Shown: positions 4,593 to 33,461, counted from the first letter of the stretch. The stretch is 35,259 nt of DNA from an uncultured Alphaproteobacteria bacterium (GCA_903861255.1 CAIOTO010000230.1:1-35259), one strand, 5' to 3'. Notes: generated from the sequence alone by a model not told the origin. Numbers and translations: made by a program.

Positions 4593-5444
4593 TTATATTA
4601 TCCGACCAACCCATTCATAGCGATACAACCGATACTGAAACGGTGCCATGCGTACAGTAAAGTCACATTGTGTTACACGTAATAAAGTCATAAGGTCAAC
4701 TGAAAATACTTTTAAGTTGGGTAAGTTGAGGGATTCACCAAAAGCGAGCACCCCCTTTCCTGTCATGTAGCTTCTTTCAACAGATAGTCCCACAAGATTT
4801 TTTAGGTTTGCGCATGTTGCAATGTTGCAGGCAGTTCCATCATCCAAATGATGCAATGCTAGATAATAAAAATTACTACAAATTGACAGTCGTAGCAAAC
4901 GCTTGATGTCAGAAGCATCAATTCCATTGACGGTACGGTCACTTAACGCAATTTTAATGCGCGGATCAAGTCTTTGCGCAATCTGAGTGAATCGTCTTAG
5001 ATTCGTTGCTTTCTCGGTTGTAACGAGCAGCATAAATTGTGCGGGAGATTTATTTATAACGCTAATCAATGAATCTGATAATGATTGCTCGGCAACTTGA
5101 ATAAGAAAATGATCTGTGGGGAGGGTTTCTGATAAATAATCAACAAAATGTTGTTGTGTTTCTGCAGTTAATTCTTCTGATAATTCAGTAAGTTCATCAG
5201 GTATTGTTGGGTTGCATGGCGGCGGTGAAAAATAGAGAAGGTCGTATTCATCTGGTTCTTCTTGATATAGCTTAAAAACCGACATTCCTTTTTTTTCGTG
5301 AGGATATGTCTCGAAGTAAGCCATTACGGTTAAGCTAAAATTGGCAGCTACTCGTGGCGGTTCAAGTTGAGGGGGATCATCCATACTACGTGCGGCAAGG
5401 ATAAGGCTATTTAACACAATGATTACGCGTATTATTATTTTCAT
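4593..5444 (-). CDS. exported protein with C-terminal RNI/F-box-LRR-like leucine-rich repeats (hypothetical)
   Basis: Start taken at internal ATG 5444 (MKIIIRVIIVLNSLILAARS, signal-like). The C-terminus has LRR-like periodicity: CANLKNLVGLSVERSYMTGKGVLAFGESLNLPNLKVFSV. Confidence 0.55.
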   Translation of the reverse strand: MKIIIRVIIVLNSLILAARSMDDPPQLEPPRVAANFSLTVMAYFETYPHEKKGMSVFKLYQEEPDEYDLLYFSPPPCNPTIPDELTELSEELTAETQQHFVDYLSETLPTDHFLIQVAEQSLSDSLISVINKSPAQFMLLVTTEKATNLRRFTQIAQRLDPRIKIALSDRTVNGIDASDIKRLLRLSICSNFYYLALHHLDDGTACNIATCANLKNLVGLSVERSYMTGKGVLAFGESLNLPNLKVFSVDLMTLLRVTQCDFTVRMAPFQYRLYRYEWVGRII

Positions 5445-5584
5445 ACAATAGCTCCGTTTGATACAGCGATTGTTTTTCAATAGATAGATCAACGTTTGCA
5501 GTAAAATATAAATAAATACCTATTTAATTAATAGTATATCATTATATGTATTAATAGTGTGTTAATATGATGTCAGGAAATTTT

Positions 5585-5691
5585 GTCATCCCCGCGAAGG
5601 CGGGGATCCAGTGTTATTTCAATATTATTATCCATAAAAACTCACCGTTTTGAATAAAGCTTTTCTGGATTCCCGCCTCCGCGGGAATGAC
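5585..5691. repeat. palindromic MITE/RPE-like element, subfamily 1 (archetype copy)
   Basis: Terminal inverted repeats GTCATCCCCGCGAAGGCGGGGATCCAG (5585-5611) and CTGGATTCCCGCCTCCGCGGGAATGAC (5665-5691). Each arm is itself a CCCGC-GAAG-GCGGG hairpin. Confidence 0.8.
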
Positions 5692-5750
5692 AATTAATGG
5701 TGATTTTAATAAAAGTCTATTGTGCCCCTCATCCATAATAACGCACCCTT

Positions 5751-7856
5751 TTAGCTATCATCACCTTTAGATTCATCGACGGCAGCTGAAGAGGCACTTT
5801 TCCTCAAAGCATTTTCAGCACGACGTTGTGCGGCTGTATTTGATGCCTGGCTTACATTTGCACTCATAGCAGAAAATCGTTCGTCAGCTAATGCTTCAGT
5901 TGAATCACCCATGCCATGTCGTGCTTGTCGGTTGTACAGATAAACTCGATTGTTAAATTCATAAGAATTTAGCCCTTCTATATCTTCAATAGCAAGCGCC
6001 TCTCTGACATTACGTGCTGATTTATAGATACGTGACGGTGTGACACTATAAATCCGGCCATCGTCACGGCGTTGCTCAGGATCTCTCATTTGATAAATAC
6101 GATCACGTGCAATGCGTTCTTTAAATTCACCCATGGCTTTTGCTTGTGCCGCGACTGGGTCATCTTGCGGGTCAATATAGTAATGACCCAAGTTCTGATT
6201 ACGCATGTAATAAGCTTGACGATCTGCATAAACGCGTTTCATAAATCCATTTTTGCGTGCATCGAATTCGGAAGCGTTCGGTTCAGCCGCTGGTTCAAAT
6301 ATGAATGTACAGTCGGTTCGCTCGAAATTACCATAGTTTCCTTGACGTGGCACACCAGTGTACGACGATGACTTATAGGTACAGAAATTACTTTGCCCAT
6401 CATCAAATGCCGTATCACGTTGCCAGAACACACCGTTATCTGTTGATGTAATTGCACGATGCAATTTCTTTGCGACGACGGATTGTTCTGGTTGTATATA
6501 GCGCATTTGATTTTGATCATAGTATCCTTGACCATTTTCAGCGAGTAAGCTGTTTGTCATGTGTGCAGATTGATCAAATCTAAATGCATATGGTGCAACG
6601 ACTTGTCTAACAGAGTTTGGCCAATAGAATATTGTTTGACCTCCCCTATAGACCACATCCCACGTTCTGTTATAACCATTTTGTGCGTGATTGCCATGAA
6701 TATCATATCCTTGTCTATTTCTAAAATCCCATGATTGTGGGGTAGGCGCACGGTATCCTGCACGGTTGTATCCATCTGCATCTAAATTGTTTCTATTTTG
6801 GAAAGCCCAACTTGGATCCTGCTGACCATTTGGATGACGCCCATTCAAATCGAATCCTTGCCTGTTATATCCACGACGGTTATATCCCGTTTCATCATAA
6901 ACATGATCTTGATAATCGATTGGCGTAAATGAGTCCCCTTCACCTTGTGTTTGTTTATCCATCGCATACACGTTCCACCAGCGACCATTTAGTTTAACCG
7001 TTGTCATGGGGCGTTTTTCACCTGTTACAACATTTGTTACAGCCATTCCAGCGTTAAAGGATCGCTGCGAAAAATATGGAAACAGTTCTTTTACTGTGCG
7101 ACCAAGAACATGTGAGTCAGGGCAGAAATCTTGTGCACTAAGCTGTTTCATGCGTTGCCGATGCATAATTGAAAAATGTTCATCAGCAAAACGATCATCA
7201 ATAGGCCTTGGTTCCAATGCGCCCATTTGAACTGTACTACTTAAGACGGATCCTGGCAGAAATGTAAATGCATAAAGCAAATCATGAATGCTTAGCACAT
7301 CATCTGCTGTAAGGGTTTGATTTTTGCTTTTATTATCAGCATAAACAAGAACTTGCTTTATAAAACGAATTTCATTTAGGATAGCTGAATTCTTTGCTAA
7401 ATCACGTTTTCTAGATTCAATATCAGGATTAGTTTCTGCAGTTTCTATTTCATGCAAAATGACGTTTTCAAAAGCAATAAGCTGCTGTCTCATTATTGTC
7501 ATTTGTGAATAAGCAAAATTTGGTCCACTTGTTCTCAAGGTTTCTACTGCTTCAGCTTGTGTACGCTCAAAATCTTGTTGAACTTCTTGCTCTCTTCCCG
7601 CTTCACGATTCGCAGCCTCATTTACATAGCGAGCAGCTCTGACGCGCAACGCTTCTGGTGAGAATTTTTCATGTTCTTTGGTTTGCACATAATATTCTCT
7701 ATCGCGAAAATCAGCACTTTGCTCTGTTGTTGGAATTGACATTTCTTTCCCAGTTTTTAAACGAACAGTTTTAGCCTGATCGGCAGCCTCGACAGCGCTG
7801 GATATCAATCCCACAAAAGCCGCGCACATCATTAATTTAGTTCGAATCATTTTCAT
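5751..7856 (-). CDS. exported protein of unknown function, paralogue A (with GYNR/GYD repeat insert)
   Basis: ATG 7856 preceded by AAAGGTG. Signal peptide MKMIRTKLMMCAAFVGLISSAVEA|AD. Shares long motif blocks with the adjacent 7937-9529 product. Confidence 0.8.
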   Translation of the reverse strand: MKMIRTKLMMCAAFVGLISSAVEAADQAKTVRLKTGKEMSIPTTEQSADFRDREYYVQTKEHEKFSPEALRVRAARYVNEAANREAGREQEVQQDFERTQAEAVETLRTSGPNFAYSQMTIMRQQLIAFENVILHEIETAETNPDIESRKRDLAKNSAILNEIRFIKQVLVYADNKSKNQTLTADDVLSIHDLLYAFTFLPGSVLSSTVQMGALEPRPIDDRFADEHFSIMHRQRMKQLSAQDFCPDSHVLGRTVKELFPYFSQRSFNAGMAVTNVVTGEKRPMTTVKLNGRWWNVYAMDKQTQGEGDSFTPIDYQDHVYDETGYNRRGYNRQGFDLNGRHPNGQQDPSWAFQNRNNLDADGYNRAGYRAPTPQSWDFRNRQGYDIHGNHAQNGYNRTWDVVYRGGQTIFYWPNSVRQVVAPYAFRFDQSAHMTNSLLAENGQGYYDQNQMRYIQPEQSVVAKKLHRAITSTDNGVFWQRDTAFDDGQSNFCTYKSSSYTGVPRQGNYGNFERTDCTFIFEPAAEPNASEFDARKNGFMKRVYADRQAYYMRNQNLGHYYIDPQDDPVAAQAKAMGEFKERIARDRIYQMRDPEQRRDDGRIYSVTPSRIYKSARNVREALAIEDIEGLNSYEFNNRVYLYNRQARHGMGDSTEALADERFSAMSANVSQASNTAAQRRAENALRKSASSAAVDESKGDDS

Positions 7857-7936
7857 AAAAAGCACCTTTCAGTATTTGTTTTGTATGTAGGAACCCACGA
7901 ATTCATCCCCGCGGGTTATTTGTTATATTCTGTGAA

Positions 7937-9529
7937 TTACTTCCTACCCCAAGATTCAGGTGCTTGTGCGCCTTTTAACATTTTTTCAGCGCGGAACTGT
8001 ACTTCTGATTGCCCGAATTGTTCGATTGATGAATCAATTTTTTCAGCTTGGCGTAGCATTAATGTGCGCATATACTCATTACCTTGTTCCGCTGCTGACT
8101 GTGCTTTGCGAATGTAATAATCACGTGTTTGCGCATAAACACGTGTCAGATAAACGCGGCGATCTGCGTACACACGTTGCATAAAGCTATCTGTTGCAGC
8201 TGGTGCATCGGTTTTTTCAAATACAAACGTGTAATTGATCAGGTCACCATTCGGTTGCCAGATTTGCTGTTGATTGTAATGCATTCCGCCTCCAGCATAT
8301 CCTCCGGCCCCATCATATGTCATGCCGCCTGATTCAAACGTAGATGCTACATATGTGCACATACCCGATTGTGAATAGCCATCGTCATAGCTTGTATCAC
8401 GTTTCCAGAAAATACCGCCGCCTTTTGCTGTCATGGATTGCTTAACTAATTTTGCCTCACGTGATTCAATTTGAGTCACTTGCACGTTCCGTCCTGTTTG
8501 AGGATCCCACCTGTATTCATTAACATCACGTTCTGTAATTAATTCATTTGCACTTTTACCAAATCGTTGTGCATATGGGTTTACAATTTTTCGTATGGCA
8601 TTTGTAAAGAATTCTTCTGCACGATGATATCCCCAGCCATACATATGGTGATGGCGATATTCAGTAGGCGCTGACGGCTTAGCTACCTCCATCGCATAGA
8701 CTTTCCACCACTGACCCGCTTTCAGTTGAACCGTGCCCAACGGCTTTCTGTCACCCGTTGAAATATCCGTCACCATACCATTTTCAAATGCAGCAGCCGA
8801 GAAGAATGGGAATAGTTCTTTTGTTAACTTGCCTATGACTTTTTTATCTGGGCAAAGTGTTGTGCCTAATTCTTGTGCTTGGGCTTTTAGTTCGCGGCGC
8901 ATACCTGATTCGCGTATGTAATAATCACGTGCATTTGCTTTAGCAGCCATTCTATAGTTTTCTTCATTAGCAGGATCACGATCATACATATCTTCTGGAC
9001 GTATCGTTGATGCTGCTGTCATATTCCTCGATATTTGAGTTACAACAAATGATCCTGGAATTCGCACATACGTGTATAGCAGCATGTAAAGGGACTTTAA
9101 TGTCTGTGAGTCCGTTAATAATCCTTGATTTTTTGCATAGCGAAGAGCAGTCCCAATATTCTCAATTTCTGCTGGTTGTTGCCACCCGGCGCCTTGGGAT
9201 CTGATCAATGCCTTTAGTTCATCTTTCATGTTTTTGATTTCGTCGAGAACAGAATTAGGATCGATTTGAACCATTCGCACTACTTTTTGTTGTTCTTTTG
9301 TGTATGCATTTTCTGCAGGATTTATTCTTCCACCGACTCCACGTGATCCATTTTGTGCAATTTGCAAGAACACAGCTGTTTGGGCATCAACGTCTTGTAT
9401 GAACGTATTTTCAGATGCTGACGATGAAGATGCTTTGAGCACTCTGCCACCGCCAAATTCCATTGCATTAACATTTGAATTAAGGACCATCGCACTGCAC
9501 ACCATCAATGTAGCTTTAAATAATTTCAT
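7937..9529 (-). CDS. exported protein of unknown function, paralogue B
   Basis: ATG 9529 preceded by AAGGGA. Signal peptide MKLFKATLMVCSAMVLNSNVNA|ME. Blocks KELFPFFSAAAFENGM, QWWKVYAME, GIFWKRDTSYDDG and FMQRVYADRR are shared with paralogue A. Confidence 0.85.
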   Translation of the reverse strand: MKLFKATLMVCSAMVLNSNVNAMEFGGGRVLKASSSSASENTFIQDVDAQTAVFLQIAQNGSRGVGGRINPAENAYTKEQQKVVRMVQIDPNSVLDEIKNMKDELKALIRSQGAGWQQPAEIENIGTALRYAKNQGLLTDSQTLKSLYMLLYTYVRIPGSFVVTQISRNMTAASTIRPEDMYDRDPANEENYRMAAKANARDYYIRESGMRRELKAQAQELGTTLCPDKKVIGKLTKELFPFFSAAAFENGMVTDISTGDRKPLGTVQLKAGQWWKVYAMEVAKPSAPTEYRHHHMYGWGYHRAEEFFTNAIRKIVNPYAQRFGKSANELITERDVNEYRWDPQTGRNVQVTQIESREAKLVKQSMTAKGGGIFWKRDTSYDDGYSQSGMCTYVASTFESGGMTYDGAGGYAGGGMHYNQQQIWQPNGDLINYTFVFEKTDAPAATDSFMQRVYADRRVYLTRVYAQTRDYYIRKAQSAAEQGNEYMRTLMLRQAEKIDSSIEQFGQSEVQFRAEKMLKGAQAPESWGRK

Positions 9530-9581: not shown

Positions 9582-9597
9582 TTAATATTTAATTAAC
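9582..9597. promoter_or_regulatory. candidate CtrA-type box TTAA-N7-TTAAC
   Basis: Exact TTAATATTTAATTAAC in the divergent intergenic region between 9529(-) and 9683(+). The AT-rich context makes a chance match plausible. Confidence 0.2.
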
Positions 9598-9682: not shown

Positions 9683-11692
9683 ATGCGAAAAACAATGCTA
9701 AAACGCCCTTATGCTATAGTCCAACTTCTCCCTGAATCTATTCTACTGACAGCTAGCCTTGCCCTTTTTTGGTGTGTAATAGCAACGTTTCCACCTCTTC
9801 GCATCGGTATTTGGATGGATGCAGAAGGCGTGTTTATTATGATAAATGTACTATCAGCATTGTGTGCATTGTCATTGGGAGGATTATTTTTTCAGCAAGA
9901 GATTAAATTACCATCTGCAGTTACGATGTTGATTGCCTTCTTTGTGGCATTCTTAGTGTTTTCGGGGGTTATGACACTGTTCGCAACGAACATGCATCTG
10001 CACCTTTGGGGGTTACCACAAACGAATGAAGGACTTGCGTCTTACCTCAATTACTTCATCATGATTGTCAGCTTTTCGGTATTGCTGCAACGTGGTCACC
10101 ATGCAGCGCTGCTGGGAAATGCAGTTATTGCGGCAATTGTTATAACACTGCTAACGGTTCTCAATCATCCAAAGCATAAAATTCTGATTAATGAAGACTG
10201 GTGCCCCTATGTGTTCAGTGCGTTTTTGGCGTTTATCGGCATTGCTTTGCTTGGTTGCGTAACGAGTATCAAGCAACACTGGGCGAAATGGGGCATGGTC
10301 GCACTTGGTGTTGCGATCATTGCGATTTCGTACAATAAGACGGCGCAATATGCCTTGATCCCGTATGGTGGGGCGCTACTTGCTGCACATTTTCTTAAGT
10401 TTAAAATCACGCGACGCGTAGCAATCATTGCTCTATTATCTTTGCCATTTCTTATTATTGGGGTGGAACTTTTTGTGGCACACCCCACTAAATTTGTTAG
10501 TCTCGATTCACGTGTAAAACTATTGCATGTCGTGTTCAGGGAATTTCAAGATCACCCCTTGCGTTTATTCACAGGGTTTGGTTTTGGGCATTTCACGGAT
10601 ACATTGTTGGCGCACTTTACGCAGATCCCTGTGGCGCTTTATAAAAGCACAAGCCTAGTTCCTGATTGGGATAGTTTGGAACGTATTGATTTTCACTGCC
10701 ATCATCAAATGATTGAAAATTTGCTGGCATTGGGGATTGGTGGGGCATTATTCACGCTTTTGCTGCCGTTGCTGACTATTTATTTTGCGCGTGATGAGGA
10801 TGTTCCATTTGCGTTGTTTTATACAAGTTTGTGGGTAACGATTTCATCGACGTGGTTTACGTTGCCTATTCATTTGCCGTTTTTAGCGTTGGCCTTATGC
10901 TGTAGTGCGCATGCTGGTCGGGATGTTGCTACAAACGTCATCGCGAGGAGGTACACCTCCGTGGCGATCTATGTATTTCAAAAAATTAGATTGCCACGCT
11001 CCCTTGGAGCTCGCAATGACGAAAGCAATAGGAGGAGTGGAAATAGATATACATTAGTGCTACTTATTCTTTCCATCATCGTTTCTTATTACGCATATGA
11101 AGGCTTCCAAACAACACGAATCTACAGCAAACACACATACTCATGGGCCGCCAGTAAAATTAATCCCCCTGCAATATTGACGTCTGATTTAATTAAACGT
11201 CATGGCGCACTTCAGGGACTTCATGCCAGCAATTATATGCAAACTCTCTTTCAAAACGCGAAAGGTAATCCGCGCGACTTAGATACGCAGAGAGAACTTG
11301 TGCTCTTTAAATACCTTGCTTTAACGACAGAGCATCCACCCCTCAGCCTTCGTATTATCATGCTTGATATATTAGGGTTTGAGCGTGACGCAAGATGGCT
11401 TGATTATTTAAAAGAAACGATCAATACTGCACCCGCGCGATTTGATTTGGCTGCACCGTATTTGGCAACGTTGCTCAATACACGCAAATTGGCTGATGCT
11501 GAGCAATTTATTACCATGCTCGAAGGCATTAATGCGAAAGATCCCATTGTCCATTGGTTCAGAGGATTGCTGCTGATTGAGTCGGGTGGGGATTTAAAAA
11601 AAGCTCGCACTTTATTAAAAGACGGGCTTGATGCGGGTATTGAACGCTGGATTCCTGTGTCGCCGACGTTAAAGACAACGATTTTGGAGTGA
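9683..11692 (+). CDS. O-antigen ligase (Wzy_C/PglL-like) family membrane protein with C-terminal TPR-like domain
   Basis: Multi-TM N-terminal part. Family motif GFGFGHF...DFHCHHQMIENLLALGIGGALF (H-x-H...E..L..G..G). C-terminal soluble helical repeat region. Contains an in-frame palindromic element. Confidence 0.8.
   Translation: MRKTMLKRPYAIVQLLPESILLTASLALFWCVIATFPPLRIGIWMDAEGVFIMINVLSALCALSLGGLFFQQEIKLPSAVTMLIAFFVAFLVFSGVMTLFATNMHLHLWGLPQTNEGLASYLNYFIMIVSFSVLLQRGHHAALLGNAVIAAIVITLLTVLNHPKHKILINEDWCPYVFSAFLAFIGIALLGCVTSIKQHWAKWGMVALGVAIIAISYNKTAQYALIPYGGALLAAHFLKFKITRRVAIIALLSLPFLIIGVELFVAHPTKFVSLDSRVKLLHVVFREFQDHPLRLFTGFGFGHFTDTLLAHFTQIPVALYKSTSLVPDWDSLERIDFHCHHQMIENLLALGIGGALFTLLLPLLTIYFARDEDVPFALFYTSLWVTISSTWFTLPIHLPFLALALCCSAHAGRDVATNVIARRYTSVAIYVFQKIRLPRSLGARNDESNRRSGNRYTLVLLILSIIVSYYAYEGFQTTRIYSKHTYSWAASKINPPAILTSDLIKRHGALQGLHASNYMQTLFQNAKGNPRDLDTQRELVLFKYLALTTEHPPLSLRIIMLDILGFERDARWLDYLKETINTAPARFDLAAPYLATLLNTRKLADAEQFITMLEGINAKDPIVHWFRGLLLIESGGDLKKARTLLKDGLDAGIERWIPVSPTLKTTILE
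10937..11020. repeat. palindromic element, subfamily 2, inserted in frame in the CDS
   Basis: GTCATCGCGAGGAGGTACACCTCCGTGGCGATC ... GATTGCCACGCTCCCTTGGAGCTCGCAATGAC. It is 84 bp (28 codons), starts on a codon boundary and has no stop. Translates as VIARRYTSVAIYVFQKIRLPRSLGARND. Confidence 0.75.
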
Positions 11693-11708: not shown

Positions 11709-11786
11709 GTCATCTATGCTCGGCGGGAATCTAGGAAATAAAAAAACGATTAAGCAGAACTGGATCCCCGCCTTCGCGAGGACGAC
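11709..11786. repeat. palindromic element, subfamily 1 (left arm degenerate)
   Basis: GTCATCTATGCTCGGCGGGAATCTAG ... CTGGATCCCCGCCTTCGCGAGGACGAC. Lies between the convergent stops at 11692(+) and 11809(-). Confidence 0.7.
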
Positions 11787-11808
11787 AAGTGAAGGAATTG
11801 CCTAAATC

Positions 11809-14076: not shown

Positions 14077-14332
14077 TATGAATTAGGTTGCATGTAATTT
14101 CGAGAGAAAAAGTAATCAGGAGAACTCACTATTTATATAAAAACATCAGAAACACGCACCCAATCTTTATTTTTTCGTTGCGTATTTAAAAATATCTGTC
14201 ATCATTGAACTGTATTATGATTTCGTATAAGAGAAAACAATGAGCATAAAATTTAACACATGGCAGTGGCGTTCGGTTTAACCAACACACCATCCTTGTG
14301 CTCAAATTTTAAGTTTATTGAAAGTTCTCATC

Positions 14333-15331
14333 ATGAATGTTACACGTCAATTTTATAAATACCTTGCATTGCCTTTGCCCTTTATTTTAGTAGGCAGCAA
14401 TTTCTCCTCTGTTTACGCAAATGCAATCCCTTCTCAAAAAGCGTCTTCCACCCAAAAGCCCTATAAGATTGCCGAAAAAATAGACGGTATCCTAAATGAT
14501 TATCAATTGACCTTTGATATTGATCGTCGCTCTGTTGAGCAGGCGTTCCAACCGCCAAAAACTCAGCCCGCAATACCAACTGACGTCATTCGTAAAATCG
14601 TGTATTTTATCGAACACAATCTTCCCATTGATATCCGCATGGTTGGCTTTCCATTTAAGTCAATTAATCATAATCGCAAAGTTATTGCACAAAATGCAGA
14701 TTTGGCAGAGCGACTCAGTTTGCAGTATTTACAGCGCATGCTGGATAAGATACGAGCCGTTTATCCAAAGGGTGCAACGATCACAATTCTATGTGATGGC
14801 ATCGCGTTTGGTGACGTGCTTGGGGTTAGCAATGATCAAATTCATGCTTATGAGGATGCATTGCAAACGCTTTCTAAAGATCTCCCCGGGATACGCATTT
14901 TGGGATCGAAAGATTTAGGCTGCACCCCAGCAGATTTCAAGCAAGATGCAGCGAAAACAACCCCTACAGATAACGAATTAATGCTAAAGCGTATGGCGCT
15001 TGAATTGAATCAAAGTGCAGTCACAGATGACGTTATCACAAAAGCAAATCACATCAGCGCACGAAGCCAACACTTTGGTGCGTTTATTAAAGATAAATTT
15101 AAAGATCAAATATATATATCAGCTTCTGTTCATTTCCAACCGAGCACATCGAGTAAGCTCGGGCTCAAACTCTCCCCCGATTCATATATTACACCATGGC
15201 ATGGCACCCTTGTAAAAGAGGCCGACGGTCGATGGCGCATCAGTCATCGTGAAGATATTGATCAAACAAAATATGTGCAAACAGGCACATACGTGAATCA
15301 ATATTGGTGCGCCTTCTTTAAGGCCAGATAG
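14333..15331 (+). CDS. DIT1/PvcA-family isonitrile synthase homologue, copy 1, with signal-like N-terminus
   Basis: Blocks GFPFKSINHNRKV, ADLAERLSLQYLQRM, ITILCDGIAFGDVLGVSNDQIHAYE, SVHFQPSTSSKLGLKL, ITPWHGTLV. Start taken at ATG 14333 (MNVTRQFYKYLALPLPFILVGSNFSSVYA). Confidence 0.8.
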   Translation: MNVTRQFYKYLALPLPFILVGSNFSSVYANAIPSQKASSTQKPYKIAEKIDGILNDYQLTFDIDRRSVEQAFQPPKTQPAIPTDVIRKIVYFIEHNLPIDIRMVGFPFKSINHNRKVIAQNADLAERLSLQYLQRMLDKIRAVYPKGATITILCDGIAFGDVLGVSNDQIHAYEDALQTLSKDLPGIRILGSKDLGCTPADFKQDAAKTTPTDNELMLKRMALELNQSAVTDDVITKANHISARSQHFGAFIKDKFKDQIYISASVHFQPSTSSKLGLKLSPDSYITPWHGTLVKEADGRWRISHREDIDQTKYVQTGTYVNQYWCAFFKAR

Positions 15332-15468
15332 CCACTTCACTTTCCCATTTTATCCATACCTATTTCACTTAATCCATAACGATTGAGCGAAATCCGTATA
15401 ACTCTTCATTCGTTTTTGAAGAGAACACCATCACTTTGTCAATTTCATATTTTAAAAGGAATATTTTT

Positions 15469-16500
15469 ATGAAAATTAAATTAAACTACACTAACAAGTC
15501 ATTTGCAATTGCTTTGCTTATGACAACGCATATGGCAACTACACCTGTTTTTTGCATGGACGTTTTGCCAACATCAGAAACAATTCAAACAACGGCGACT
15601 CAGTCTATTGTAATGCCAGAGTGCATTCAAGACTCACGCATTGCATTTGATAATCTATCCTTGTCGGATAAAACAATTATTGCGAAGCATATTGAGTGCC
15701 TACCGCAACTAAAAGTAAGTGGCAACACTATAAAATCTTTAAGTGAATTCCTAAGAAATTGCATTAAAAACAAACCTCAAATGCCTTTTGAGGATTTAGT
15801 ACAGCAAGCAATATCAACGGGAATACCACTGCAATGCATTATGCTGGGCTTTCCAGTCAAATCACAAAATGTGGATGAAGTCTACGATGAACGAGCTGGG
15901 TTGGGTGATCTGCTTAGCTTGATTACGCTGCGCCATGTTGCATTTGAAATTGGCAAAGTATATGGACCAGGAGCTAAATTTCGAATCGTAAGTGATTATG
16001 CTGCTTTGAAAGACATTGTATCACCAGAATCCGCAGGTATTTACCAGGCAGGCATTCAACATTTAGTTGATTTATTTCCAGGCACACTTGAATACGATAG
16101 AGATTTTCATGATGCAGATTTTACATATACCGTTTCGGATGTCACATTAAAAGATAAGCGCTATTCGCTAGCTGGCAAGGCAAATGCTGAAAGAATTATG
16201 GTTGCCAAAGCAAAATCAGAGGGATTTAGCGCTTATATAACCGATAGTCTAAAAGATACACCCCACCTTCGATTTTCAGTGCATCACTATAAAAATGGAG
16301 AATCCAACAAACTTACATTGCCGTTTATGGGTAAAAAACTAGGCACACCATGCCATCATGTGTGTCTAGTTGATGCGGAATCTAAAAGCATACTTACCAA
16401 ATACAAAACGCAAGAAGGTCGTGCTGTTGGAGAAATGAAGGTAATGGAACTGCCAACTATAGATGGGCATATAATTCCGTTAACCTACTTTAAAGTTTAA
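15469..16500 (+). CDS. DIT1/PvcA-family isonitrile synthase homologue, copy 2 (diverged), with signal-like N-terminus
   Basis: Blocks GFPVKSQNVDEV, GLGDLLSLITLRHV, FRIVSDYAALKDIVSPES, RFSVHHY, GTPCHHVCLV are collinear with copy 1. ATG 15469 preceded by AAAAGGA. Confidence 0.75.
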   Translation: MKIKLNYTNKSFAIALLMTTHMATTPVFCMDVLPTSETIQTTATQSIVMPECIQDSRIAFDNLSLSDKTIIAKHIECLPQLKVSGNTIKSLSEFLRNCIKNKPQMPFEDLVQQAISTGIPLQCIMLGFPVKSQNVDEVYDERAGLGDLLSLITLRHVAFEIGKVYGPGAKFRIVSDYAALKDIVSPESAGIYQAGIQHLVDLFPGTLEYDRDFHDADFTYTVSDVTLKDKRYSLAGKANAERIMVAKAKSEGFSAYITDSLKDTPHLRFSVHHYKNGESNKLTLPFMGKKLGTPCHHVCLVDAESKSILTKYKTQEGRAVGEMKVMELPTIDGHIIPLTYFKV

Positions 16501-16995
16501 AGGGACGGTATCACAAAGCCACTCTTTCCACCCCTTTAACTTTGTTAAATCCTGATCAATGGTGGCCATGGTGTCACTTTGGTCAGGTGTTTCATCCTTG
16601 AGCCAAACGCGAAGCCAATGATTGAAATAAATCGTATAGGTATGCAAACGTGCTTTGCTCGTCAGATCATCAGGCGCCAACTCCAACTGACAAAACATAC
16701 GCGTCAAAAATCCACGTGCCATGGGGATTAAATCATTTAGCAGGCATGGGGATAATAACATGTCAGGACAAAGTCGATTAAGCGCATGTTTGTCAGGCAC
16801 AAGTGCATCAAAAACAACCAGCGTTGCCTCTAACAGACGGTCATGAATTGGCAGCGTCGCCTCAATCGCCTCAATCTGCGGCGCTGTGAGAGCCTCAATG
16901 TAATAGACATAAGCCGTTAGTATTTCAGCAGATGCATCGCCAAGACCATCTAGCCCCATTGATTCAATTTCATTATGATCAAGTGGATTTTTCAT
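16480..16995 (-). CDS. hypothetical protein (start uncertain: 16995 or 17097)
   Basis: Long ORF whose upstream third is antisense to gapR and was trimmed. No domain recognised. Its 3' end overlaps the convergent 15469-16500 CDS by 21 nt. Confidence 0.45.
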   Translation of the reverse strand: MKNPLDHNEIESMGLDGLGDASAEILTAYVYYIEALTAPQIEAIEATLPIHDRLLEATLVVFDALVPDKHALNRLCPDMLLSPCLLNDLIPMARGFLTRMFCQLELAPDDLTSKARLHTYTIYFNHWLRVWLKDETPDQSDTMATIDQDLTKLKGWKEWLCDTVPLNFKVG

Positions 16996-17125
16996 AAAAA
17001 TTACACAATGTATAAAAGGCTCTTCTTTTTGGATAGCCTTTATTAGCATTAAGTGCAAATCATATTTGCATTTTTTGCTAAAGATTTGTATCGTCATGGC
17101 ATAGAAACAAAAAAGAGAAAGACTT

Positions 17126-32396: not shown

Positions 32397-33341
32397 CTAA
32401 TACACAAATGATCTCAGCATTTGCATGAACTTACTGTTATAACCCCATTGTGATATTTTGAAGCAACCAAGAATATCTGGAATCAATGAAAACATGCGCT
32501 GGTGGGGGTGCCTGTGCACGTTCTTAACAATACCATCAAGGTCATCACTTGTTATATAAGTGATTCCATCAGGCTTTTTTTGAGTCGCAACAAACAAAAG
32601 TGCTTGGTCGTGTGAATGCCCTTTGAACTTTGGATGTTGCTTTTGACCGTCAAGTAGCTGATCGGTGAGTGCGTCTTTATTTTCACATAAATTGAGCCAT
32701 GTTTGAACAAAAGCGCGACCGCGTTCTGTGTTTCGCACAACAAGGAATGCGCCTCATAGCGCGTGGTGAGGCTCAAGGCTATTAGGGACAATGCCATTTA
32801 AAGCAAGCGCTTCACTCTTAATCGTTTGAAAAGCCATATTGAAATTATTTTTCCGTTTGCTGCCGTCTTGTAATAGCAAAATATCAGTTTTTGAATCATT
32901 AAGTTTACGCACAAAAGGTTCTATAGAACTTTTAAAGATAACGGGTGAATCCGCATAAAAAACGATTGAACCCTCGGGGAGTTCTTTGAGCGCTTTCAGC
33001 AGAACATACGGTTTCCAAAGCCAGTAACCAGACCCTTTTTTTTGATCAAGTATTTCTTTGTTTTTCGCATAAAATGCGGCGTCGATATCTTTACGATGAT
33101 ACTGAAAGAAACGATCAAAACCGCGATTAAATGCTGAAAACGTTTGCGCGTTCTGGTTTTGATAAAAAACAGAATCACCATCTGCGTATGAAATGCATGC
33201 GATCGGGGCTGAATTTAGCGTCTTCATTTTGTCAATGTTAACAGGAGCAAGCGAGATATCACTTTTATTTAGGATATAAATTTGTTCAGCCACATTTAGA
33301 AAAATGTATAAACAGAAAAAAACAACCACATAGCGATACAT
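32397..33341 (-). pseudogene. membrane-anchored glycosyltransferase-like protein interrupted by an in-frame TGA
   Basis: ORFs 32754-33449 and 32397-32738 are in the same frame, separated only by TGA (32754-32756) and 5 sense codons: ...EPHHAL*GAFLVVRNTERG... N-terminal anchor MYRYVVVFFCLYIFLNV. The GYWLWKPYVLL...FYADS and DQALL blocks suggest a sugar transferase (weak inference). Confidence 0.55.
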
Positions 33342-33383
33342 TTTTGCGAACACAGATTTGCCTCTTTTATTATTAGCTTGTTC

Positions 33384-33461
33384 GTCATTGCGAGGAGTCG
33401 AAGACGACGTGGCAATCGAAGATACTGGATCACCACACTTGCTTCCCACGTTCGTGAAGAC
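33384..33461. repeat. palindromic element, subfamily 2
   Basis: GTCATTGCGAGGAGTCGAAGACGACGTGGCAATC (33384-33417) ... CTGGATCACCACACTTGCTTCCCACGTTCGTGAAGAC (33425-33461). It supplies the apparent N-terminal extension of ORF 32754-33449. Confidence 0.7.

Follow-up and report, generated by a model that had tools for sequence, protein, structure and literature searches.

A narrow family of predicted exported proteins encoded beside a divergent Wzy_C-like membrane protein in an uncultured alphaproteobacterium

A 35,259-nt stretch of DNA from an uncultured Alphaproteobacteria bacterium (GCA_903861255.1, CAIOTO010000230.1:1-35259; the whole stretch is referred to here as the window) carries two adjacent minus-strand genes, a short and a long paralogue, whose family is genuine, undescribed and very narrow. 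We have hardly any doubt that both genes are real and that their products are exported. The pair probably functions together with the product of a divergently transcribed neighbour, a polytopic membrane protein. As read from sequence, a CtrA-type box, the predicted exported protein(s) and a putative Wzy_C-TPR membrane protein make up a conserved three-part module. Since the module conserves both the ligase-type neighbour and the box, the likeliest role of the pair shifts from that of free effectors to that of partners or substrates of a Wzy_C-type enzyme. Therefore, we tentatively propose that the two proteins may be exported envelope proteins dedicated to a PglL/WsfB-like O-oligosaccharyltransferase (O-OTase) as its acceptors or partners. 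Wzy_C-type catalysis, the membrane topology, a substrate relationship, CtrA control and a surface location are inferred.

The gene pair and its conserved neighbours

The features on which the argument depends are as follows.

7937 to 9529, minus strand: short paralogue gene, an open reading frame (ORF) of 530 aa; orthologues 60-82% identical
7866 to 7936, minus strand: spacer between the paralogues, 71 nt, with a 10-bp GC-rich hairpin (-13.6 kcal/mol) and no T-run
5751 to 7856, minus strand: long paralogue gene, 701 aa from the ATG; orthologues 49-52% identical
9582 to 9596, no strand assigned: TTAA-N7-TTAA (CtrA-type) box in the divergent promoter region
9683 to 11692, plus strand: conserved partner gene; its 669-aa product is a polytopic membrane protein, Wzy_C-like but divergent, with a TPR-like domain at the C-terminus
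10679 to 10768, plus strand: invariant His-rich motif ERIDFH(C/S)HHQ..E..L..G..GA, placed where a 74-aa loop ends and covered by the Wzy_C match of the homologues
11102 to 11689, plus strand: C-terminal soluble TPR/HAT-like domain of the partner (residues 474-669), predicted to be periplasmic, with weak TPR_19 matches in homologues

An earlier note on this DNA had described the two genes as tandem, strongly diverged, collinear paralogues sharing six pairs of motifs. BLASTP aligns the two proteins with E=1e-32 and 27% identity over ~440 columns (35-42% in the core), and all six motif pairs were recovered in collinear order. No additional paralogues were found within the window. The long ORF was first called from a GTG at 7865 (5751-7865, 704 aa). 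We place its true start at the ATG at 7856 because all orthologues begin MKMI..., and the sequence GAAAGG lies 9 nt upstream. The hairpin in the spacer lacks a T-run and co-transcription of the paralogues is therefore possible; no terminator-like site was called on the minus (coding) strand of this spacer. Promoter and terminator consensus scans of the region did not rise above shuffled expectation, and no relevant non-coding RNA or tandem DNA repeat was found there. The short paralogue also contains a 26-nt direct repeat, 88% identical (8102-8127 and 8906-8931), that encodes RDYYIR twice, at residues 201-206 and 469-474.

The membrane-protein gene divergently adjoins the family in the window, in L006 and in L001/L007, and is 77-79% identical in L001 and L006. 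Putative partial genes occupy the same position in L003 and on the contig of P0002, where linkage is probable. A distant clade shows another arrangement, with a single family gene and, 90-100 nt further along that strand, a gene for a 657-aa protein. This was seen in every locus examined (L033/L035, L036/L037, L038 and L039). The 657-aa protein of L033 is a full-length homologue of the membrane protein of the window (E=6e-84, 31% identity), and all five such proteins score ~1,120-1,190 bits against the partner profile. The one that follows P0027 had been considered as a second paralogue; this was rejected, as it is a homologue of the membrane partner. Among loci with enough flank, no family member was found without the partner gene. 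A functional connection is argued for because the linkage persists through ~80% sequence divergence and a changed gene order. A flagellar link through the motAB genes of L001 and L003 was also considered and discarded, as these are not syntenic in the window or in L006.

The same note had labelled this neighbour O-antigen-ligase-type, a label supported at sub-threshold level and through the homologues of the protein. Two of six partner homologues match Pfam Wzy_C (PF04932) over nearly the whole model, at sub-threshold scores (L036: 26.5 bits, E=6e-6, model positions 2-148 of 149, residues 205-360; L033: 20.9 bits), whilst the window protein itself has no Pfam match. TPR_19 matches the C-terminus of three homologues (E=0.0018-0.09, below cut-off), and HAT/TPR-repeat-like entries of the PDB match the partner at E ~0.06. 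Its hydropathy profile contains ~12-13 hydrophobic segments and a 74-aa loop at residues 269-342, and the invariant residues include R245, R277, H338, H340, H341, E345, G351 and G354, R277 and the His cluster lying in this loop. Hydropathy together with the positive-inside rule favours 13 transmembrane (TM) helices, a model that would put the Arg/Lys-rich loop 413-452 in the cytoplasm and have the large loop face the periplasm, as well as the C-terminal domain (474-669).

Two further observations concern this protein. Firstly, the window gene contains an in-frame, self-complementary insertion (10928-11041, -47.6 kcal/mol) with the ends ACGTCATCGCGAGG...CTCGCAATGACG, which adds ~38 codons (ATNVIARRYTS...RSLGARNDESNRRSG) to a predicted cytoplasmic loop and is missing from the L006 orthologue; it resembles the Rickettsia-type palindromic elements that enter ORFs. 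Secondly, a 168-aa signal-peptide protein (L042 2241-2747, minus strand) adjoins the Wzy_C-TPR homologue in the metagenome-assembled genome (MAG) of Ca. Finniella inopinata. Its ARVH.GVAGGRVH.ENRLH repeat units recall the tail YGRVHVPDYRYGRVYE of the distant clade, by chance or through a shared recognition motif.

The CtrA-like box that had been placed beside the pair is present at 9582-9596, 53 nt upstream of the short-paralogue ATG and 87 nt upstream of the membrane-gene ATG. It recurs at a matching distance (52-58 nt) in L001, L003 and L006 and, within the distant clade, in L033/34/35 and L038, with one mismatch in L036. Moreover, it is the sole match in the 5-12 kb of L001, L006, L035 and L038, and the best conserved block of the otherwise divergent upstream spacers in both clades. 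Given this conserved position in both clades, CtrA-type control of the module is plausible, and the box would probably time its expression. The TTAA-N7-TTAA pattern was found six times in the window against 2.0 expected, most copies lying in upstream regions. The other five are at 4943, 5551, 18335, 23027 and 30205, and four of them stand upstream of genes: a 299-aa gene, a NAPRTase-like gene, a 945-aa orphan ORF and the divergent pair 29596(-)/30319(+). These extra boxes hint at a CtrA-type regulon; no ctrA gene lies in the window.

Distribution, architecture and evolution of the family

A profile (hidden Markov model) search of 1.84 billion representative proteins gave 22 matches, all of them from Paracaedibacteraceae-like metagenome assemblies and none named beyond "hypothetical protein", in keeping with the proposal that this is an undescribed, narrow family. 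A word-indexed search of 5.8 billion proteins returned four orthologues of the short protein and three of the long one, and its extension with a wide alignment yielded one extra sequence, the fragment P0017. Almost nothing was gained from scanning 185,579 species genomes and JGI metagenome contigs; no further members of the distant clade were found in the genome and metagenome scans, the final metagenome scan re-finding known contigs only. Full-length tandem orthologues, short then long, are present in L001/L007 (a Pseudomonadota MAG) and L003, and the same order is seen in L006, L032 and L040, where the contig end interrupts it. In total, at least four other assemblies hold intact full-length orthologues of both genes. 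The distribution among close relatives is patchy, the family being missing from several related MAGs. In the closest relative, MAG_236 (L008 2-1335), the long paralogue is broken by a frameshift into two overlapping frames, which may be an assembly error at low coverage (~6x) or a pseudogene.

MutS of the window is 94% identical to that of Alphaproteobacteria MAG_236 and 75% identical to that of a "Candidatus Paracaedibacteraceae" MAG. Together with the homologue of the partner gene in the Ca. Finniella inopinata MAG, these identities indicate an uncultured relative of protist endosymbionts; the G+C content of the window is ~41%. The ratio of non-synonymous to synonymous substitution (dN/dS) of the pair is 0.18-0.29 in all orthologue pairs (short 0.20-0.26; long 0.18-0.29). 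The membrane neighbour has 0.10, MutS 0.04-0.05 and the NMO gene 0.01. Therefore, the pair is under purifying selection and yet evolves several-fold faster than its neighbours.

The distant clade, recovered by exhaustive search, comprises P0025, P0027, P0029 and P0030 (480-578 aa) together with P0021. Its exported protein is ~20% identical overall and 19-28% identical in the core, and has in common with the window proteins the signal peptide, a CPD...LFP.F...TG...P...L.G.LW.VFA module, a C.Y strand and an R-V-Y/R-V-H tail. Judging from the identities in the core, the duplication that gave the tandem pair would be later than the split from this single-copy clade.

Both paralogues are laid out alike. 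By sequence and AlphaFold2 (AF2) secondary structure, the short protein consists of a signal peptide, an S/A-rich disordered linker, a helical N-domain, an alpha/beta core and an R-V-Y helical tail; the long protein repeats this plan with the tail extended. The corresponding segments are listed below.

9464 to 9529, minus strand: Sec signal peptide predicted for the short paralogue, at residues 1-22, cut after VNA (heuristic)
7785 to 7856, minus strand: Sec signal peptide predicted for the long paralogue, at residues 1-24, cut after VEA (heuristic)
8195 to 8866, minus strand: residues 222-445 of the short paralogue, its conserved alpha/beta core
8087 to 8185, minus strand: basic helix at the C-terminus of the short paralogue, containing RDYYIR and three R-V-Y motifs
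6630 to 6920, minus strand: GYNR-type insertion of the long paralogue, ~97 aa, N/Y/R/G-rich, in a variable loop
5934 to 6245, minus strand: tail of the long paralogue with five R-[VI]-Y repeat motifs, kept in P0006, P0007 and P0012

Sec and signal peptidase I (SPase I) assignments were made by sequence rules, namely an n-h-c pattern with small residues at -3/-1 and the absence of other TM segments. The short paralogue begins MKLFKATLMVCSAMVLNSNVNA↓ME, that is MKLFK, 15 mostly hydrophobic residues and VNA↓ME, and the long one MKMIRTKLMMCAAFVGLISSAVEA↓AD, that is MKMIRTK, a hydrophobic stretch and VEA↓AD. By these rules the classical Sec signal peptides claimed for both proteins are borne out, the SPase I pattern being kept in every orthologue of both paralogues and in the distant clade, and neither paralogue has a second hydrophobic segment beyond the signal peptide. 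A lipoprotein (SPase II) reading of the conserved Cys11 was discarded: its context is LMVC, LMMC or LMLC (V, M or L at -1) against a lipobox of [LVI][ASTVI][GAS]C, and the cysteine is missing from the signal peptides of the distant clade. The prepilin leader G↓F(T/S)LxE occurs in no family member, none matches a pilin family of Pfam, and the proteins are 480-714 aa long.

Directly after the signal peptide, short paralogues carry a 20-35-aa S/A/T-rich linker with a predicted local distance difference test score (pLDDT) <50, and long paralogues end in S/A-rich tails. The GYNR-rich insertion is present in the window and in P0006 and missing in P0007, P0008 and L008; the equivalent loop of the short paralogue is variable, with pLDDT <50. 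The reiterated R-[VI]-Y motifs noticed earlier number three in the short protein (residues 452, 458 and 463) and five in the long one (541, 586, 601, 609 and 637), and their Tyr is His in some distant members. In the full-length AF2 model the C-terminal helix of the short paralogue spans residues 449-481, with pLDDT ~80 from residue 470.

Searches for a known domain, the absence of which had also been claimed, were without match. Neither exported protein retrieved a family from Pfam or NCBIfam at E<=1; across all 14 superfamily members Pfam gave isolated single-member matches only (E>=0.0056), the best PHROGs match had E=0.55, and the best matches in PDB sequence and profile searches (E=0.3-0.4) were not credible. 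A full-length AF2 model from nine sequences reached a pLDDT of 54.6, with a confident helical N-domain (residues 40-160) and C-terminal helix, and gave only noise in Foldseek. Cropping to the core (residues 205-455) with a 14-sequence alignment raised pLDDT to 73.4, with a predicted TM-score (pTM) of 0.71, and produced a seven-stranded antiparallel sheet packed against helices. With a fold match defined as Foldseek E<=0.001 or a meaningful TM-score, this core model had no match in the PDB (best E=0.33, TMq<=0.14) or in BFVD (best E=0.61, TMq<=0.15). START/Bet v 1 and beta-lactamase folds recurred among the hits and were discarded (TM<=0.14, root-mean-square deviation 16-22 Å). Judged against PDB and BFVD, the modelled core may provisionally be regarded as a new fold. 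Twelve positions are invariant in the superfamily (C226, P227, D228, P241, F243, G259, P263, L269, G272, A279, C391 and Y393), a pattern that suggests a structural rather than a catalytic role, and the two invariant cysteines, C226 and C391, probably form a periplasmic disulfide. We also considered an ADP-ribosyltransferase-like R / S-T-S / E-x-E reading of FWKRD, ASTFE and FVFEK, which was rejected as the segment is missing from the distant clade.

Possible roles of the module

Under the acceptor or partner reading the module might work as follows. Sec would export soluble envelope proteins made of a helical N-domain, a ~230-aa alpha/beta core, hypervariable loops and a basic Arg/Tyr-rich helical tail. 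In the periplasm these would be recruited by the TPR-like domain of the membrane protein, whose Wzy_C domain would move a lipid-linked glycan onto hydroxyl residues of the flexible S/A-rich linkers or tails. The product would be host-facing glycosylated envelope or surface proteins, hence their fast evolution. That the pair are glycosylation acceptors is possible, although we would not call it probable.

Several points weigh against this proposal. Pfam finds nothing at E<=1 in the membrane protein of the window, the best Wzy_C score among its homologues lies under the Pfam gathering cut-off (26.5 against 31.7 bits), and WaaL was not retrieved when PDB sequences were searched with a profile. 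None of the available loci shows genes for glycan assembly, and the distant clade has no evident S/A-rich segments. Substrates encoded next to such enzymes are usually pilins, which the putative acceptors are not. Both the topology and the signal peptides are predicted by heuristic rules. Moreover, Finniella-like MAGs carry the membrane protein (28-29% identity) with no detectable family member adjoining, and it is therefore not strictly dedicated. Lastly, the conserved adjacency is equally compatible with a partnership in which the exported proteins are not substrates.

Such a partnership is one of two alternatives that we regard as unlikely, though worth weighing. The exported proteins could be periplasmic accessory subunits, scaffolds or specificity factors acting through the TPR domain, of an enzyme that ligates glycan to lipid A-core, another lipid or peptidoglycan. 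This would draw on the identical conserved adjacency, on the putative periplasmic TPR domain and on the proteins having a structured, conserved core and helical domains instead of being purely disordered acceptors; a membrane protein that stands alone in related genomes likewise fits a core enzyme with optional accessories. However, subunits would be expected to evolve more slowly than the pair does (dN/dS 0.18-0.29, with 0.10 for the membrane protein), and to our knowledge no WaaL, Wzy or PglL system has soluble accessory proteins of this kind.

The other alternative, which we rate no higher, is that the pair are free-standing Sec-exported effectors or adhesins aimed at a eukaryotic host, close to the surface or effector role suggested in the earlier note, the neighbour being functionally unrelated. 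Placement in a protist-endosymbiont clade (MutS 75% identical to a Paracaedibacteraceae MAG; partner gene in Ca. Finniella) would suit such a role, as would a dN/dS 2-20 times that of the neighbours, hypervariable loops with a GYNR-rich insertion gained or lost, patchy presence in close relatives and a novel fold. However, a membrane-protein linkage that outlasts ~80% divergence and a change of gene order is hard to explain if the genes are unlinked in function. A Sec signal reaches the periplasm only and no secretion-system gene adjoins, nor do the proteins contain a eukaryote-like domain or enzymatic motif, their invariant residues being two Cys and P, D, F, G, L, A and Y.

Less probable still is a structural role in the periplasm or envelope confined to one stage, with CtrA controlling production of the proteins as the cell differentiates to a transmissible form and with no link to glycosylation. 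A box at a fixed distance in both clades, its excess in the window (six against 2.0, mainly in upstream regions) and the nature of the proteins, which are large, soluble, exported and helix-rich, are consistent with this. The box is nevertheless a short AT-rich pattern in AT-rich spacers, and the membrane-protein linkage would go unexplained; in part, such a role is compatible with the acceptor or partner reading. A more specific scheme, in which the paralogues form a glycosylated surface coat of unseen fold, a WsfB-like partner glycosylates the R-[VI]-Y tyrosines and CtrA controls the system so that the coat is made at a particular stage of the symbiont cycle for host entry or recognition, is a long shot; if true, it would be the first tyrosine O-glycosylation system of a Gram-negative endosymbiont.

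That the ORFs are spurious or decaying pseudogenes, as the frameshift in MAG_236 (L008) and the absence from several related MAGs might suggest, is effectively refuted by conservation and dN/dS: both genes have intact full-length orthologues in four or more other assemblies, dN/dS is well under 1, signal peptides, cysteines and motifs are conserved, and the low coverage (~6x) of the L008 contig means that its frameshift may be an assembly error.

If the substrate link of the favoured reading is true, dedicated protein O-glycosylation reaches non-pilin acceptors in obligate-symbiont-like Alphaproteobacteria, with a new acceptor scaffold and a new O-OTase lineage that would be of interest for glycoengineering, and the cell-cycle regulator CtrA would be tied to envelope glycoprotein production. 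If it is false, this is another lineage-specific orphan family of local interest only. The protist symbionts of the Holosporales/Paracaedibacteraceae are uncultured and their envelope proteins and host interaction are almost uncharted; the module offers a concrete, testable pair.

Other features of the window and known systems compared

The pair had been described as flanked by a leucine-rich repeat (LRR) protein and a palindromic element. The LRR label was not upheld: the protein of 4593-5492 (minus strand) matches nothing in Pfam or NCBIfam at E<=1, and it has an N-terminal hydrophobic segment and a C-terminal part that is RI-type LRR-like by eye only. A homologue is found in L008 (E=4e-35), a few kb from the family gene. 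The palindromic element is indeed present, at 5580-5693. It is dispersed, with the core TGTCATCCCCGCGAAGGCGGGGATCCAG, and recurs at 11759-11788, 17398-17425 and 17478-17509; at 5583-5693 and 17398-17509 two inverted copies around 50-80 nt form long hairpins (-50.7 kcal/mol). Every copy is intergenic and at gene ends, and the element looks like a miniature inverted-repeat transposable element (MITE) or a repetitive extragenic palindrome (REP).

Tandem DIT1_PvcA (isocyanide-synthase-like) genes lie at 14318-15331 and 15436-16500, ~2.6 kb from the membrane-protein gene. In a Finniella-like MAG (L043 373-2852) two tandem ORFs lie directly upstream of the Wzy_C-TPR homologue, in divergent orientation; the first is homologous to a DIT1_PvcA gene of the window (E=5e-21) and the second is similar by eye only. 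The window is rich in orphan genes, and ORFs 23095-25932 (945 aa), 16480-17298, 17525-18286 and 32754-33449 have no Pfam match.

Turning to known systems, the module shares with CtrA-regulated alphaproteobacterial envelope genes a TTAA-N7-TTAA promoter box whose position is conserved across clades, although here the control is read from a short AT-rich motif. What the putative partner enzyme would share with WaaL is a Pfam Wzy_C region, matched below cut-off in its homologues, and, between late TM helices, a large loop in which Arg and His are conserved. WaaL has 12 TM helices and no C-terminal TPR domain, and differs too in being usually encoded in lipopolysaccharide core loci and not beside exported orphan proteins. 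[quoted passage not shown] The invariant R277 and H338/H340/H341 of the partner recall this Arg/His set.

The nearest precedent is the pairing of an O-OTase with an adjacent acceptor, established for pilA-tfpO/pilO of Pseudomonas aeruginosa, comP-pglL of Acinetobacter baylyi and other pglL homologues (PMC3643930). As in these pairs, the gene for a polytopic membrane protein, here putatively of Wzy_C type, stands directly beside that for an exported protein, and in the distant clade the two genes lie close together on one strand, as in the known pairs, which are often co-transcribable. The differences are an SPase I-type signal instead of a prepilin leader, a length of 480-700 aa and a novel core; furthermore, the Wzy_C match is sub-threshold, and the window clade is divergently arranged with a duplicated putative acceptor. 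The flexible S/A-rich extensions resemble the modified sites of non-pilin PglL substrates.

[quoted passage not shown] That system is Gram-positive, wsfB lies in a glycan biosynthesis locus and SpaA has no sequence similarity to the family. The partner would nevertheless resemble WsfB in combining Wzy_C-like and C-terminal TPR-like regions, WsfB modifies a large, abundant surface protein that is not a pilin and, by analogy with SpaA, the R-[VI]-Y repeats of the exported pair could offer exposed tyrosines.

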